From Bacillota bacterium (GTDB taxonomy: Bacteria; Bacillota; GCA-003054495; Carboxydocellales; JAJZTU01): a DNA stretch of 43,622 bases. The position numbers were made by a program, and so were the translations under genes. Below are positions 17,484 through 40,536 of the stretch, piece by piece (within the stretch, counting starts at the first letter, position 1; each line of letters starts with the position of its first letter). The stretch spans positions 1 through 43,622 of the forward strand of contig JAJZTU010000003.1 of the NCBI GenBank assembly GCA_021848765.1. The letters run 5' to 3'. Under the pieces are notes generated by a model. The model searched no databases. It had not been told where the DNA came from and saw only the letters and a list, made by a program, of their open reading frames with translations.

Positions 17484-17617
17484 AGAATTCACCTCCTCTC
17501 CGGTAGATAGCAAAACTTGCCCAGAGGTAAGTTTTTCCCACCGGAGAGAAAATATGCAGCAGTATCCAATGCAACACGGTGTCACCTCAATTTTTTTAAG
17601 TAAATATAAGTAAATAT

Positions 17618-18037
17618 CTAACTTCTGACCACAAAAATGCTCCCAATTAGTATTAAAATACTCCCTAAAAGCAATTGTGTGCTCACCTTTTCCCGCAAGA
17701 ATAGAACTGCTATAACGAGAGTAACTACCACGCTGAGTTTGTCCAAAGGCGCCACCTTACTGGCCGGCGCTAACTTCAACGCCGCGAAAAACGCTAACCA
17801 GGATGCGGCTCCGGATAACCCGGATAAAAAAATAAAGACAAGAGAATGTCTATCTATACTTCTTATTTGTGAAAAAGTGCCGTTAAAAAGTATCAACATA
17901 ATCAAAGACCCGGCCATTATTGTAGCCCTGACCGCTGTTGCCACCGTTGAGTCTATATTTCGTATACCGACTTTTCCAAAAATGCCAACCAAACCGGCAA
18001 AAAAAGCAGAAAGTAGAGAATAAGTAATCCATCCCAT
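17618..18037 (-). CDS. EamA/DMT-family small membrane transporter
   Basis: Five hydrophobic segments, KVGIRNIDS..ATAVR and SKVAPLDKLS motifs. Confidence 0.85.
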   Translation of the reverse strand: MGWITYSLLSAFFAGLVGIFGKVGIRNIDSTVATAVRATIMAGSLIMLILFNGTFSQIRSIDRHSLVFIFLSGLSGAASWLAFFAALKLAPASKVAPLDKLSVVVTLVIAVLFLREKVSTQLLLGSILILIGSIFVVRS

Positions 18038-18079
18038 TTATGATTCCTCACTTTTGGCTCCCCTTCAGAGAGCCCGTCG

Positions 18080-18424
18080 CTATTTTACTTTCTTTTTAGC
18101 ACCATACTGTATAACATTTACATCAACCAGCATAATTAACCCCCGAGGAACCATTTCTTGAACAGCAGGTAAAATTCTCATAATATTTTCCTCAGAATCT
18201 ACTGCTTCGATAACCATCGGTAAATCTGCAGAAAGGTCAAGTATTTTGGCAGAGTGAAGCTGTTTATCTGCACCATAGCCCAGAATCCCCCTATAGACCG
18301 TAGCTCCGGCTATTCCTGCTTCCCTTAACTTCATTACGATTTGATTGTATAGTGTTTTACCGCGCCACTTTTCAGCTTCCCCAACATAAATCTTCAACAG
18401 CTTAGCTTTACCTGTAATGTCCAT
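18080..18424 (-). CDS. DUF190 (PII-like, CrcB-associated) protein
   Basis: LKIYVGE, GIAGATVYRGILGYG and LSADLPMVIE motifs. Adjacent to crcB. Confidence 0.9.
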   Translation of the reverse strand: MDITGKAKLLKIYVGEAEKWRGKTLYNQIVMKLREAGIAGATVYRGILGYGADKQLHSAKILDLSADLPMVIEAVDSEENIMRILPAVQEMVPRGLIMLVDVNVIQYGAKKKVK

Positions 18425-18436
18425 AATCACACCTCC

Positions 18437-18808
18437 CTATAACTGTCCCGCTAAAACAATACCGGCGTATGCTGAGACCAAACCAACGATAATACTGGTT
18501 AAGAAATATTTAACTGCTGTGCTTTTTTCCCCGTCTTCAATTAAACCGATTATTTCGTAACTAAAAGTAGAATAAGTGGTATAAGCACCCAGGAATCCCG
18601 TTGTTGTCAGGTGCTTTAAAAAAACCAATTCGGCACTGGCCCTGGAAAACAAAACATACAGTAAACCCATTACAAATGATCCGGTAATATTTATCAAAAA
18701 GGTGGCCAGCGGAAAATCCCCCCGCCACCTTTGGCCTACCCATTTACTTAGACCATACCTGGATAAGGCGCCAAAGACACCCCCTAAACCAACAAAAACG
18801 TACTCCAT
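18437..18808 (-). CDS. crcB: Fluoride efflux channel Fluc/CrcB
   Basis: GGVFGALSRY, INITGSF and TGFLGAYTTYSTF motifs. Confidence 0.95.
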   Translation of the reverse strand: MEYVFVGLGGVFGALSRYGLSKWVGQRWRGDFPLATFLINITGSFVMGLLYVLFSRASAELVFLKHLTTTGFLGAYTTYSTFSYEIIGLIEDGEKSTAVKYFLTSIIVGLVSAYAGIVLAGQL

Positions 18809-18831
18809 ATTTTTTCGCCTCCCCGCAGGTG

Positions 18832-19242
18832 CTATTCAGCGGATTCCCTTACAGGCCGCGCGGTCATGACCCTGCTCAAAACAACGCCGAACCAGGCAAA
18901 CAATACACAACCAAGTGACGTGGACAGGATATAGGCCAGAGAAAGCCCAGTCAGGTTGCTCCTTAGTAAATTAATTGATTCCAGGGCAAAGGTGGAAAAA
19001 GTGGTATAGGCCCCCAAAAACCCGGTTCCAACAGCCAAGCGCAACTTTGGATTTATTGCCAGCCGGTCTACGGTAAGGGTCAGGAAAAAACTTAAAACAA
19101 AGCAGCCGGTCAAGTTTATGATCAGCGTATTTAGCGGGAACGCGGAAGTGAATCCGGCCTTGATCAGTTTGCCAAGGGCTGCCCTGGTAACTGCACCAAG
19201 AAACCCGGCAATTGCAACTGCCAGATAGTCCAATTTAGTCAC
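18832..19242 (-). CDS. crcB: Fluoride efflux channel Fluc/CrcB (second subunit)
   Basis: GFLGAVTR, INLTGCF and TGFLGAYTTFSTF motifs. Confidence 0.95.
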   Translation of the reverse strand: MTKLDYLAVAIAGFLGAVTRAALGKLIKAGFTSAFPLNTLIINLTGCFVLSFFLTLTVDRLAINPKLRLAVGTGFLGAYTTFSTFALESINLLRSNLTGLSLAYILSTSLGCVLFAWFGVVLSRVMTARPVRESAE

Positions 19243-19252
19243 CTGCCTATCA

Positions 19253-20260
19253 CTATTTTAAGGCTTCTGCTATTTTCACAGCTAAGGCCACCGTTGCCCC
19301 GACCATCGGGTTATTGCCCATACCGATAAAACCCATCATATCTACGTGGGAAGGGACAGAACTTGAACCTGCAAATTGAGCATCACTGTGCATACGTCCC
19401 ATTGTATCGGTCATCCCGTACGAGGCCGGTCCTGCTGCAAGGTTATCGGGGTGCAAGGTTCTTCCTGTGCCACCACCGGAAGCTACAGAAAAGAAAGATT
19501 TACCGTTTTCAATACACCATTTCTTGTATGTCGCCACCACAGGATGCTGAAACCTGGTTGGGTTTGTTGAATTCCCGGTAATTGATAGATCTACCTGTTC
19601 AAGTTGCATAATTGCTATGCCTTCATCAATTGATTCAGCACCATAAATCCTTACATTTGCCCGTTTATCATTGGTAAACTTTTTTTCGTTAACAATATGT
19701 ACTTTCCCGGTTTTAAAGTCAAACTTGGTCTCTACAAAAGTAAAACCGGTCATTCTCCCTATAATATTGGCTGCATCCTTTCCCAAGCCGTTAAGAATGA
19801 CTTTTAACGGCTGCTTCCGCACTTGATCCGCATATTTTGTGATTCCTAATGCCCCCTCAGCGGCAGCAAAGGATTCGTGCCCGGCAACAAAGGCAAAAGT
19901 ACGGGTTTTTTCATCTAACAACATGCTGGCCAATCGCCCGTGTCCAAGTCCAACTTCTCTTTGTTCGGCCACTGATCCGGGAACGGTAAAAGCCTGAAGT
20001 CCTTCCCCAATTGATAGAGCGATCTCTTGAACATTGGCGGATGCTTTTTGTATTGCTATGGCTGCCCCCAATAGGTAAGCCCAGACGGCGTTATCGAAGG
20101 CAATTGGTTGTACACCCCTGACTAATTCTTCGATGTTAATACCCTTGCTAAGCAACAGTTCTCCGGCCTTTTGCAAATCATCCATTTGGTATTGTGCTAA
20201 GACAGCTTTGATTTTATCAATCCTACGTTCAATTCCTTCAAAATGAACCACTGTATTCAC
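19253..20260 (-). CDS. GGGtGRT-family protein (function unknown)
   Basis: Signature SGGGTGRTLHPDN, plus FVAGHESFAAAEGA and GRMHSDAQFAGSSSVP. Confidence 0.92.
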   Translation of the reverse strand: MNTVVHFEGIERRIDKIKAVLAQYQMDDLQKAGELLLSKGINIEELVRGVQPIAFDNAVWAYLLGAAIAIQKASANVQEIALSIGEGLQAFTVPGSVAEQREVGLGHGRLASMLLDEKTRTFAFVAGHESFAAAEGALGITKYADQVRKQPLKVILNGLGKDAANIIGRMTGFTFVETKFDFKTGKVHIVNEKKFTNDKRANVRIYGAESIDEGIAIMQLEQVDLSITGNSTNPTRFQHPVVATYKKWCIENGKSFFSVASGGGTGRTLHPDNLAAGPASYGMTDTMGRMHSDAQFAGSSSVPSHVDMMGFIGMGNNPMVGATVALAVKIAEALK

Positions 20261-20263
20261 CTC

Positions 20264-20947
20264 CTACTCGTTTCTAGGGTCTATAGTCCGAACAGCTTCC
20301 GAAAACCTGCCGTAAGTCCCCACTGTACTGTTGTATGCTTCGTCCGGGGAAACACCTTCACGGATTAAGTTCATCATTCTACCCAAATTAACAAATTTAT
20401 AGCCGATTATTTCATTTTGATTATCAAGTCCTAGTTTCAAAACATATCCTTCAGCGATTTCTAAATATCGTGGACCACCCTCCAGAGAACTATAAACAGT
20501 TCCAATATGGGAACGCTGATTTTTGCCTAGTTCTTCAACCCCTGCCCCGACAGGAAGTCCACCTTCGGAAAAAGCAGTCTGAGAGCGCCCGTAAACAATC
20601 TGTAGGAATAGCTCGCGCATTGCAACGTTAATAGCATCGCAAACAAGGTCTGTATTGAGAGCTTCCAAAATGGTCTTACCGGGCAGAATCTCACCGGCCA
20701 TTGCCGCAGATTGAGTCATTCCCGAGCAACCAATGGTTTCTACCAGGGCTTCCTGAATGATACCGGCCTTAATATTCAGAGTTAACTTACATGCCCCTTG
20801 CTGAGGAGCACAAGCTCCAACACCGTGGGTTAATCCATTAATTTCTTTAATTTCCTTAACCTTATCCCATTTTCCCTCTTGTGGTATAGGTGCCGGCCCG
20901 CGATTTGCACAGCTATGCACACAATACATCTTGCCTTGATTAGTCAT
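20264..20947 (-). CDS. IscU/NifU-like Fe-S scaffold-type protein (GGGtGRT partner)
   Basis: GACAPQQGACKL, ETIGCSGMT and DLVCDAIN give an IscU-like Cys spacing. Confidence 0.75.
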   Translation of the reverse strand: MTNQGKMYCVHSCANRGPAPIPQEGKWDKVKEIKEINGLTHGVGACAPQQGACKLTLNIKAGIIQEALVETIGCSGMTQSAAMAGEILPGKTILEALNTDLVCDAINVAMRELFLQIVYGRSQTAFSEGGLPVGAGVEELGKNQRSHIGTVYSSLEGGPRYLEIAEGYVLKLGLDNQNEIIGYKFVNLGRMMNLIREGVSPDEAYNSTVGTYGRFSEAVRTIDPRNE

Positions 20948-20973
20948 TATAACCCCTCTCTTTCGGAAAAAAT

Positions 20974-21004
20974 AAAAAAACTCCTACCAGTGATCCGGTA
21001 GGAG
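20974..21004 (-). terminator. Riboswitch expression-platform terminator
   Basis: CTCCTACC-GGATCACT-GGTAGGAG followed by T7. The 5' arm is the 3' end of the aptamer. Confidence 0.88.
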
Positions 21005-21050
21005 CTATCAGCTGTGAAAACAGCGGTTAAGGCGAGCCCCATCGCCTTTG
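20997..21050 (-). ncRNA. Fluoride riboswitch (crcB motif)
   Basis: GGCGATGGGGCTCGCC-TTAACC-GCTG-TTTTCA-CAGC-TGATAGCTCCTAC matches the crcB consensus, with pseudoknot GGGGCT/AGCTCC. Lies upstream of an operon containing crcB. Confidence 0.93.
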
Positions 21051-21067
21051 TCTTTATTTGTTTTATA

Positions 21068-21097
21068 TTTATTCTCTCTTTTTCCGTAATTTCCTTC
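21068..21097 (-). promoter_or_regulatory. Sigma-H-type promoter upstream of the fluoride riboswitch
   Basis: GAAGGAAATT ... AGAATAA, AGGA-N17-GAAT, placed so that transcription would start just before the aptamer. Confidence 0.5.
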
Positions 21098-21136
21098 TAT
21101 TCTTCTTGATTATTGAGAGCCTTTGGCAAAAAAAAT

Positions 21137-21493
21137 TCACGGTAACACTAACATCTGACTGGCTTCGGGTTTAACCATTTTAAACTTGCTGGTAGCTACT
21201 TTTTCCAACGTCTCTAGCTTCAAGGCCTTATGTACAGTTAGAGCCATACGCTCGTTTTCCATGCGTAGAGCGGCTTCTGTTTCCCTAAGCCCGGCCAGTT
21301 GTTCGCTGGCTAAGCTAATCCGCAGGTTAAGGGCAATATGGCCGGCGCCGAAAAGTAAGAGCATAGCAGCAGTAATTAGTAATATTCCAAATCTGTTTAT
21401 CTCCCTCGGAACATCCTCGTTAAGTAGGGCTGTAGTGGAGTAAACCGTTTTGCCATCCCATTTGTGGTCCAGATACCCTCTTGCAGTAATCAT
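21137..21493 (-). CDS. FtsL/DivIC-like single-TM coiled-coil protein
   Basis: One TM segment, heptad LRETEAALRMENERMAL and C-terminal LEKVATSKFKMVKP. ATG follows GGAGG. Confidence 0.65.
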   Translation of the reverse strand: MITARGYLDHKWDGKTVYSTTALLNEDVPREINRFGILLITAAMLLLFGAGHIALNLRISLASEQLAGLRETEAALRMENERMALTVHKALKLETLEKVATSKFKMVKPEASQMLVLP

Positions 21494-21512
21494 CCCCATT
21501 CCTCCTCGTAAG

Positions 21513-21845
21513 CTAGTGGTTTCCCTGGTCCGGTGCAAAATAGGCGCTAAGTTCTTTGAGCATATCCTGATTAACCCAGCACCGGACCCAGGGGCCGGTT
21601 TTTTTTACATTAATTAGCCCTGCCCGCCGTAATTCCTTAAGATGCTCCGAAACAGTGGACGGAGATAATTCAAAAATTCTTGCCAGTTCGGTGACCCCCT
21701 GTCCCTCTTCCGGCCTGGCTGAATTTCCCCGGGACTCCGGAGTCTCGGAAGCACTGCCCTCATGACGGAGGTGCTGAAATATTTCCAGGCGGTTTTTATT
21801 GGCCAGAGCCTTAAGCACCTCTACCCAATTAACCAATTTACCCAC
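21513..21845 (-). CDS. ArsR/SmtB-family transcriptional regulator
   Basis: KALANKNRLEI and VTELARIFELSPSTVSEHLKELRRAGLI motifs. Confidence 0.92.
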   Translation of the reverse strand: MGKLVNWVEVLKALANKNRLEIFQHLRHEGSASETPESRGNSARPEEGQGVTELARIFELSPSTVSEHLKELRRAGLINVKKTGPWVRCWVNQDMLKELSAYFAPDQGNH

Positions 21846-39881: not shown

Positions 39882-40536
39882 TAATTACGACCGGTCGGAT
39901 ACCTGTCCCGGTTCGGTGCTCTTAGTTCCGTACCTAGCAGCTCTAAGCTTGGTGTGCTAATAAAATCGACCAACCTTGCTGATGGGGCATCCGTGCCCCC
40001 AGCAAGGTTGCCGGCGTCCATGCCGGCAAGGTCGATTTTATTGCACACCCGCGCTAAGAGCTGCTACGGTACTCCACCATGAGCACCTAAACCGGGACAG
40101 GTATCCTCCCTGACCAAAGTTTCTGCGTGGTTGCCGCACACTCTCACCGGGAAACGGATAGCAAAACGGGGTAACTCTGCCTGATAAGGGACTGGACCGG
40201 GGCACCGTTCGGGATAACTGTTTTATCAGGCCGGGGCTACCGGTCCCTGGTAACTTATTCGCCCAGGCCGGGGCTACCTGCCGGTGAAGGAGCGACTCGC
40301 GGAGTACGGTAGCAGTTCTTAGCGAAGGTGCGCAACAGAATCGACCTTGCCGGCATGGACGCCGGCAACCTCGGCGGGGGCACGGACGCCCCATCGCCGA
40401 GGTCGGTCGATTCTGTTAGCGCACCAAGCTTAGAACTGCTCTGTGCGGAGCGTGGAGCTCCAAACCGGCAGGTAGTCCCGGCCGGAGACAAAAACGAGTC
40501 CGGCCAGAGCAAAACAGGTATCGACCCGACGAATTA
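39882..40536. repeat. Composite palindromic element: two inverted copies of a ~210-bp branched hairpin
   Basis: Copy 1 spans 39897-40106 (17-bp perfect outer stem) and copy 2 spans 40266-40483. The 132-bp cores align without gaps at 113/132. Imperfect terminal inverted repeats at 39882-39906 and 40514-40536. Confidence 0.85.

Follow-up and report, generated by a model that had tools for sequence, protein, structure and literature searches.

An IscU-fold/GGGtGRT gene pair behind a fluoride riboswitch: a rare but recurring arrangement and a candidate two-subunit enzyme

The locus described here raises the question of why two genes for proteins of a widespread orphan family should lead an operon that appears to be controlled by fluoride. 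It lies on contig JAJZTU010000003.1 of a Bacillota bacterium (assembly GCA_021848765.1), of which positions 1 to 43,622 were analysed and are called the window below. On the minus strand, a fluoride riboswitch is followed by a gene for an IscU-like protein, a gene of the GGGtGRT family, two crcB genes, a DUF190 gene and an EamA gene. The initial annotation of this stretch proposed that the two leading genes encode a fluoride-induced, possibly iron-sulfur (Fe-S)-dependent two-subunit enzyme or repair system. From sequence comparison and structural modelling we lean towards the view that the pair genuinely, if rarely, belongs to the fluoride regulon and is probably a heterodimeric enzyme with a metal at the subunit interface.

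The aptamer, of the crcB motif, was located by Rfam cmscan at 20992-21055 (minus strand) as a match to all 64 positions of the RF01734 (Fluoride) model, scoring 57.3 bits (gathering score 34) with an E of 1.9e-13. It scores 61.2 bits with R1, a covariance model built in this analysis from 30 riboswitches of the window's phylum. The expression platform (20969-21006, minus) is an intrinsic terminator with a U-run, in which a hairpin at 21006-20979 with 12 pairs (6 of them G-C) and a loop of 4 is followed by TTTTTTTATTTT. The 5' arm of this hairpin, AGCUCCUACCGG, overlaps the 3' pseudoknot strand of the aptamer and includes its 3' CUCCUAC, so that the terminator is an alternative helix competing with the aptamer. 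A terminator that overlaps the 3' strand of the aptamer is the usual layout of a fluoride ON switch. The minimum-energy fold of the leader contains P1, P3 and the terminator (z -3.96), and 0 of 200 shuffles were equally stable. A scan of the minus strand for consensus promoters found none upstream of the aptamer, where TTACGG-16-TATAAA, read by eye, is a weak promoter candidate. The canonical aptamer and terminator claimed at the outset are therefore borne out, and the leader is by its sequence a terminator-type fluoride ON switch for which fluoride binding is predicted. Transcription entering the leader would stop at the terminator unless the aptamer folds, and read-through would express the pair, the two CrcB proteins, DUF190 and, in this strain, EamA as one packed unit.

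Placement of the pair behind a fluoride switch is not confined to the window, and recurs in metagenome contigs and in a genome of another phylum. A pattern scan of metagenomes, in which the aptamer core was joined to the PAPIP motif of the IscU-like partner at one narrow spacing only, returned three contigs with a riboswitch directly upstream of the pair (54.2, 53.1 and 45.5 bits with the Rfam Fluoride model, all above the gathering score). The first, L124, is a relative of the window, with proteins 86% and 79% identical and a terminator-type leader. L122 (73% and 65% identical) holds a promoter matching 11 of 12 positions, an aptamer, a terminator hairpin, a ribosome-binding site (RBS), the pair, a 13-pair terminator and a histidine kinase gene, with no crcB found in its 5.3 kb. 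L123 (72% identical) again has a terminator-type leader, and its contig ends within the first gene. In the genome from another phylum, G422, two riboswitches (54.5 and 40.4 bits) lie within one cluster (L141, G422:C138, 248-6470), which runs from riboswitch 1 through a dynamin-like GTPase gene, an 81-nt gap, the pair and an AAA_22 gene to riboswitch 2, a Na+/H+ exchanger gene and a rubrerythrin gene; no terminator was predicted in the 81-nt gap between the GTPase gene and the pair. When partner proteins are placed on a tree, those linked to a switch occupy three positions, namely the window with L124 (a long branch of 0.54), L122 and L123. The pair may have come under fluoride switches in three or more contexts that differ in sequence.

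Two further observations bear on whether such cargo is accidental. Between the window and L124, the proportion of synonymous differences (pS) is 0.71-0.73, which amounts to saturation, and the proportion of nonsynonymous differences (pN) is 0.07-0.09. The resulting ratios of nonsynonymous to synonymous rates (dN/dS) of 0.027 and 0.046, despite saturated synonymous sites, indicate that selection has long preserved the pair in its switch-linked setting. In addition, when the phylum's other riboswitches are ranked by score, the gene that immediately follows each of the top 29 belongs to CRCB in 17 cases, CLC in 4, Dynamin_N in 3 (L096, L101, L110), Na_H_Exchanger in 2, and Usp, Enolase (L104) and DUF6062 in 1 each. 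As all 29 first genes fall within 7 families, the cargo of these riboswitches is not random.

The two proteins of the pair are closely tied to one another. The GGGtGRT protein of the window (335 aa; 19253-20260, minus) matches PF14057 over the entire profile (607.4 bits vs 27; positions 1-327 of 327) and carries its GGGTGRT motif at residues 262-268. Its partner (227 aa; 20264-20947, minus) has an IscU fold and a C-terminal extension, and reaches 19.1 bits with NifU_N (PF01592), for which the cut-off is 22. The GGGtGRT family comprises at least 7998 clusters at 90% identity. Of 80 loci, 76 have an IscU-like gene immediately before GGGtGRT, which is 76 of the 76 that could be assessed, as the remaining 4 are cut by a contig start no more than 311 nt from GGGtGRT; the two genes are an obligate, inseparable pair. 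These loci span Clostridia, Negativicutes-like genomes, Bacteroidota, Akkermansia, Syntrophorhabdus and Methanobrevibacter, and both proteins are about 60-71% identical to those of the window across all sampled organisms. A collection of plasmids contained 10 records with GGGtGRT, none of them a small mobile plasmid. Among the direct neighbours of the pair, tyrosine integrase genes stand immediately behind GGGtGRT in 4 of 69 downstream positions (L011, L012, L022, L062).

Structural models suggest how the two proteins may work together. The AlphaFold2 (AF2) model of GGGtGRT (predicted local distance difference test, pLDDT, 87.4; predicted template-modelling score, pTM, 0.87) is helical towards the N-terminus and Rossmann-type over residues 114-321, and the GGGTGRT loop comes after a strand. 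The model of the partner (pLDDT 79.7) shows an IscU fold in residues 37-121 and an extra C-terminal domain of about 100 aa. The closest structures to the partner are Archaeoglobus fulgidus IscU (4eb5_C; VIA Z 9.0, root-mean-square deviation 2.2 over 85 aligned residues, 22% identity), with a second VIA match at Z 8.8, and human ISCU (5wkp_H; Foldseek E 6.4e-5, probability 1.0). Prediction of the heterocomplex, proposed as a check on the first reading, gave a score of 0.69 against 0.00 for the best of three controls, with runs agreeing in at least 26% of contacts and a partner pLDDT of at least 70; the mark set for this score is reached by 116 of 157 solved complexes and by 2 of 215 mismatched pairs. 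Binding is thus predicted, with IscU-type cysteines at the modelled interface, which involves Cys46 and residues 73-77 and 100-104 of the partner and residues 52-55, 128-132 (HESFA), 159-172, 195-196 and 301-303 of GGGtGRT. Because the conserved partner cysteines C46, C74 and C103 face invariant GGGtGRT residues, we infer that the pair forms one two-subunit protein with a candidate metal or Fe-S site at the interface, and not a cluster-assembly scaffold. Such a heterodimer, with a metal or Fe-S centre between its subunits, would act as one enzyme.

Likeness to the IscU/NifU-N scaffold extends to the fold of partner residues 37-121 and to the GC(S/G)G cysteine. The partner falls below all curated cut-offs (24.9 vs 187.9 bits for TIGR03419, 19.5 vs 192.4 for TIGR01999 and 16.5 vs 92.5 for a third IscU/NifU/SufU model), its first ligand cysteine is displaced, it has a C-terminal domain, and GGGtGRT is always in its operon. 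Cys74 aligns with the conserved GC(G/S) cysteine of IscU (the Cys63 equivalent) and is the sole ligand cysteine to do so; the first IscU ligand cysteine aligns with a Gln flanked by Cys46 and Cys53, and the alignment stops before Cys103. The two-subunit part of the original proposal stands, on an obligate pair (76 of 80 loci) and a predicted complex, and its repair-system part found no support. Fe-S dependence is conjectural, as the IscU fold (Z 9.0) is accompanied by failed curated cut-offs and by one aligned ligand cysteine out of three.

The pair of the window also belongs to a divergent subtype made up of the window, L124 and a few metagenome proteins, P0003-P0006 (80-91% identity) and P0007, P0009 and P0010 (71-72%). 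In this subtype GGGtGRT is without Cys92, Cys121 and Cys205, which are kept in 75, 75 and 73 of 77 other sequences, respectively, and shows N145D, N171T and V215I at otherwise invariant positions; the partner shows D139E. Partner His79 is Gln in the window, L122 and L124 and His in 69 of 70 others.

As for what the enzyme might do, the neighbours of the pair in other genomes give a hint. At 17 of 102 pair loci the pair is inside or next to a lower-glycolysis operon, always with the same orientation as the glycolysis gene (L018, L028, L029, L035, L040, L041, L048, L052, L058, L067, L078, L004-L006, L047, L059, L080). The order is constant, gap-pgk-tpi-gpmI-(pair), with eno behind the pair in L028, L047 and L048; eno directly precedes the pair in an Akkermansia locus and pyk does so in an Acetatifactor locus. 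These loci occur in Clostridia, Selenomonadaceae-like genomes, Akkermansia and Acetatifactor, about four lineages on the tree, and other neighbours are heterogeneous. That the pair turns up time and again in gap-pgk-tpi-gpmI-(pair)-eno operons points, weakly, to lower glycolysis, where fluoride classically exerts its toxicity. In the available part of PMC11139923, enolase and pyrophosphatase behind fluoride switches are thought to be over-produced because fluoride inhibits them. By analogy with these two enzymes, the pair would most likely be a central-metabolic enzyme that fluoride impairs and that is over-produced in response, or a route round a fluoride-blocked step.

Iron offers a second hint. 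In Bacteroides thetaiotaomicron, GGGtGRT and its "NifU" neighbour (BT0173-BT0174) are listed together as iron-responsive in the accessible portion of PMC10434189, and iron-dependent expression of the pair or of GGGtGRT appears for B. thetaiotaomicron and C. pasteurianum in the portions available of PMC10434189 and PMC5395762. Directly upstream of the pair in Anaerofustis lies a gene for a DtxR-type iron-dependent repressor (L069 4792-5166), which fits iron-responsive expression. It is conceivable, if rather improbable, that the pair is an iron-dependent enzyme of lower glycolysis or of a neighbouring phospho-metabolite step in anaerobes, serving as a fluoride-insensitive bypass of enolase or as a major over-produced target of fluoride, and that the switch is its dedicated regulator and can travel with it as a 1.9-kb cassette.

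Several lines of evidence weigh against placing the pair in the fluoride regulon as a metal-containing enzyme, foremost among them the rarity of the link. Scanning 87 other pair loci (853 kb of flanks) with R1 found 0 riboswitches, and crcB, DUF190 and EamA genes were found at 0 of 80 pair loci. Within the window's phylum (151 genomes) GGGtGRT is present in 8 genomes and a fluoride riboswitch (E <= 0.001) in 61; only G000, among the 8 pair-bearing genomes, has both together, and two genomes hold them far apart or on different contigs. GGGtGRT was not found in the other 4 genomes of the window's class. In a second phylum GGGtGRT occurs in 14 of 401 genomes, all copies 61-67% identical to that of the window, and 1 of these 14 genomes is linked (1 of 15 loci, in G422). 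Altogether, of the 102 pair loci surveyed besides the window, a single one belongs to a riboswitch cluster and none adjoins crcB, and a linkage of 1 in 101, with the window left out as the trigger of the study, is by itself not above a crude chance expectation. Rare linkage had been set beforehand as the result that would count against the proposal, and since linkage is rare in the surveys of 87 loci, 80 loci and 14 genomes, the fluoride link is not a family-wide property of GGGtGRT. The recurrent cases have their own weaknesses, as the metagenome scan has no denominator, the backbone of the partner tree is weak and compatible with a single origin, and L122 and L123 are 86% identical. Riboswitch 1 of G422 seems from its sequence to mask an RBS and looks translational, so that its control of the downstream pair would be indirect. 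On the structural side, GGGtGRT has no clear structural relative, with a best Foldseek E of 1.6e-3 and none at E <= 0.001, and its VIA scores (Z <= 9.3) are tied among tubulin, SDR and GT-B (Rossmann-type) folds. The glycolysis link, moreover, is guilt by association among kin.

Population data add to this side of the balance. The promoter region, riboswitch, IscU-like gene and GGGtGRT form a presence/absence block of 1882 nt (19259-21140), recognised from the joint 19258->21141 in contigs of public sequencing runs, and co-occurring strains are without all of it. The block ends at the stop of the upstream gene and 3 nt before the GGGtGRT stop. In the block-less form, the end of the upstream small gene is joined to crcB, at a depth of 7 in X1, 17 in X2 and 5.73 in X6 (160 letters on the shorter side); this form comes from DNA runs of three studies, of mine drainage, sediment and mine tailings. 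The crcB genes have a depth of 15.7 and the pair 6.1 in X1, and only the block-less form is present in X6. In X2 and X5, two runs from a single study, the partner has a 187-nt deletion (20377-20563) and GGGtGRT an extra C after 19851, with riboswitch and crcB intact; both changes are frameshifting, and the pair is therefore dispensable in this population. The switch and the pair are thus an accessory 1.88-kb block in this species, and some strains are without it or losing it. The region 17600-21100 occurs in 9 public runs from 3 studies, each labelled as a metagenome of mine drainage, mine tailings or sediment, and only 5 of them contain at least half of its words.

The best-surviving alternative concerns origin and not function. 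A 1.88-kb cassette of promoter, riboswitch and pair could have been inserted before a crcB operon that had no switch, in which case the switch belongs to the pair and its gating of crcB is secondary. We regard this as a serious possibility that falls somewhat short of an even chance. It agrees with the gain or loss of the block as one piece with the boundaries just given, and with L122 as an example of an autonomous switch-pair unit. It also fits the genomes nearest to the window, two from its family (G003 and G004) and one from its order (G001), in which crcB-crcB has no riboswitch before it; R1 scored 10.5 bits there at best, with filters off. Pulling the other way are the operons of G019, G107 and G067, which run riboswitch-crcB-crcB(-DUF190), encode proteins 61-76% identical to those of the window and have the aptamers closest to its own (0.88, 0.86 and 0.86, respectively). 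This similarity of aptamers and proteins suggests that the pair was slotted into a riboswitch-crcB-crcB module. The frameshifted population, furthermore, keeps its switch, as expected if crcB needs it, and no repeats, microhomology or recombinase were found at the block ends. Directly upstream of the block, at 21137-21845 (minus), lie an ArsR/SmtB regulator gene and a gene for a small membrane protein with weak likeness to FtsL.

It is also possible, but on balance unlikely, that the pair is without any role in fluoride response, having landed by horizontal transfer between an existing riboswitch and crcB, or ridden in with a riboswitch, and being tolerated, and that the other cases are chance or remnants of comparable accidents. 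The rarity of the linkage, the proximity of the window's aptamer to the crcB-linked aptamers of G019, G107 and G067, the lack of the pair in the 4 other genomes of the class and the polymorphism of the block, frameshifted in one population, would all be explained in this way. Such an accident is harder to reconcile with a dN/dS of 0.03-0.05 held across synonymous saturation between two switch-linked lineages, or with L122, where switch and pair form a dedicated unit that has a promoter and a terminator to itself and contains no crcB. G422 provides an independent context, and accidental cargo is uncommon, as 29 of 29 first genes fall in 7 recurrent fluoride-associated families.

A true scaffold aided by GGGtGRT, rebuilding metal centres damaged under fluoride stress, is very improbable: the IscU fold and conserved cysteines of the partner, iron-responsive expression elsewhere and the rubrerythrin gene of the G422 cluster speak for it, but the partner fails the curated IscU/NifU/SufU cut-offs, only its Cys63 equivalent aligns with the IscU ligands, the immediate neighbours of the pair (67 upstream, 69 downstream) include no conspicuous desulfurase or chaperone gene, its cysteines are predicted to be buried at the GGGtGRT interface and not free for transfer, and the reported high abundance of the protein in metaproteomes fits an enzyme better than a scaffold. 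Kinship of GGGtGRT with tubulin and FtsZ, considered because its GGGTG loop resembles the tubulin motif, was rejected. Alignment with 20 FtsZ domains by hhalign gave a probability of 1.6% away from the glycine loops, 0 of 78 members had even a weak match to Pfam tubulin at E up to 10, and BtubA (VIA Z 9.3) is tied with SDR and GT-B folds. A profile search of PDB sequences with GGGtGRT returned two chance-level rows only (E 0.17 and 0.7), and a search of the ESM Atlas gave no usable match outside PF14057.

The rest of the operon is of a familiar type. Behind the pair come CrcB/Fluc paralog 1 (18832-19242, minus; PF02537, 88.5 bits vs 32.9; TIGR00494, 91.0 vs 80.45) and paralog 2 (18437-18808, minus; PF02537, 97.1 vs 32.9; TIGR00494, 90.2 vs 80.45), which would probably form a heterodimeric Fluc channel. 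Next is a P-II-like DUF190 gene (18080-18430, minus; PF02641, 131.3 bits vs 23.4), the product of which is 76% identical to the G067 copy. DUF190 is a frequent companion of crcB, and DUF190-like proteins were seen by eye after CrcB in L091, L093, L099 and L105. The gene order and the gaps of 3-42 bp described initially are confirmed: all six genes are packed on the minus strand, with gaps of 3, 10, 23, 6 and 42 nt. Assemblies from a second study bridge DUF190-crcB-crcB-GGGtGRT as well as IscU-like-riboswitch-upstream gene. Three weak terminator-like sites lie within operon genes on the same strand (19226-19203, 17999-17983 and 20514-20499); the whole scan gave 11 such sites and shuffled sequences 7.4 +/- 3.2, which is chance level, and the operon shows, in line with the first reading, no internal terminator beyond that level.

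The last gene encodes a single-domain EamA protein of 139 aa (17618-18037, minus; PF00892, 76.4 bits vs 28.2). Full-size members of the EamA/DMT group carry two EamA domains. X1 and X2 have contigs with 1331 unrelated letters where the window has 17558-18077, and the EamA form is a minority in X1 (depth 3.9 vs about 16 in the flanks). EamA is thus strain-variable cargo, and its presumed place as a conserved operon member did not hold up, given this replacement and the lack of EamA behind the 29 other riboswitches. No terminator was found by the scan downstream of EamA. A long stable hairpin (17484-17560, minus; region z -3.55) encloses the RBS of the YhcN/YlaJ spore lipoprotein gene that follows. 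Far from the operon, two matches to the TwoAYGGAY RNA (39923-40079, minus, 54.5 bits; 40297-40453, plus, 53.5 bits; gathering score 43) are divergently oriented, with about 220 nt between them.

Compared with classical fluoride-riboswitch operons, which serve crcB/Fluc, eriC-F/CLC-F, Na+/H+ antiporters, enolase and pyrophosphatase in the available portions of PMC2864571 and PMC11139923, the window shares the aptamer, the ON logic of an overlapping terminator and the CrcB and DUF190 cargo, and differs in that its first two genes are the IscU-fold/GGGtGRT pair. Enolase and pyrophosphatase are the nearest parallels in cargo, as conserved, mostly housekeeping families of which a small minority is switch-linked (PMC11139923). 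Inhibition by fluoride has been measured for enolase, however, and the window pair is the only copy found in its genome (83% complete), not an extra one. Operons in which a riboswitch leads a dynamin-like GTPase gene are a further example of recurrent non-transporter cargo, and in G422 this GTPase gene lies directly upstream of the pair, whereas the pair itself is switch-linked in only about 1-2% of sampled loci. The BT0173-BT0174 genes of B. thetaiotaomicron are the same two-gene module, 64-70% identical across phyla; unlike the window, pair loci of this type have no fluoride switch, and the window pair is a divergent subtype that has lost three cysteines. Our literature search found no report of a link between a fluoride switch and the pair, although the gene list and supplement of Baker et al. 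2012 may hold one, and found no paper with "fluoride riboswitch" plus "IscU" or "NifU". Papers that mention GGGtGRT do so mostly in metaproteome or iron-stimulon tables and, among those listed, with the name in neither title nor abstract. The operon is real and ordinary in kind, and its cargo is new and rare.

Few proteins lacking an assigned function are as conserved as GGGtGRT and its IscU-fold partner, which keep 64-70% identity from Clostridia to Bacteroidota, Akkermansia and Methanobrevibacter, and the fluoride switch gives this orphan pair its first condition-specific lead. The functional lead initially claimed for the family holds in this sense, through a switch-pair arrangement that recurs, though rarely, in unrelated microbes. 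A ligand-specific riboswitch is a rare, purely genomic clue that names a physiological condition, which makes fluoride the stress to apply, with Fluc, dynamin-like GTPase, the Na+/H+ exchanger and enolase as the partner genes worth watching. At the level of populations, a riboswitch is seen to come or go together with its cargo as a single small block. For the fluoride regulon, the link adds a candidate that is not a transporter and may be a metal-centre enzyme.

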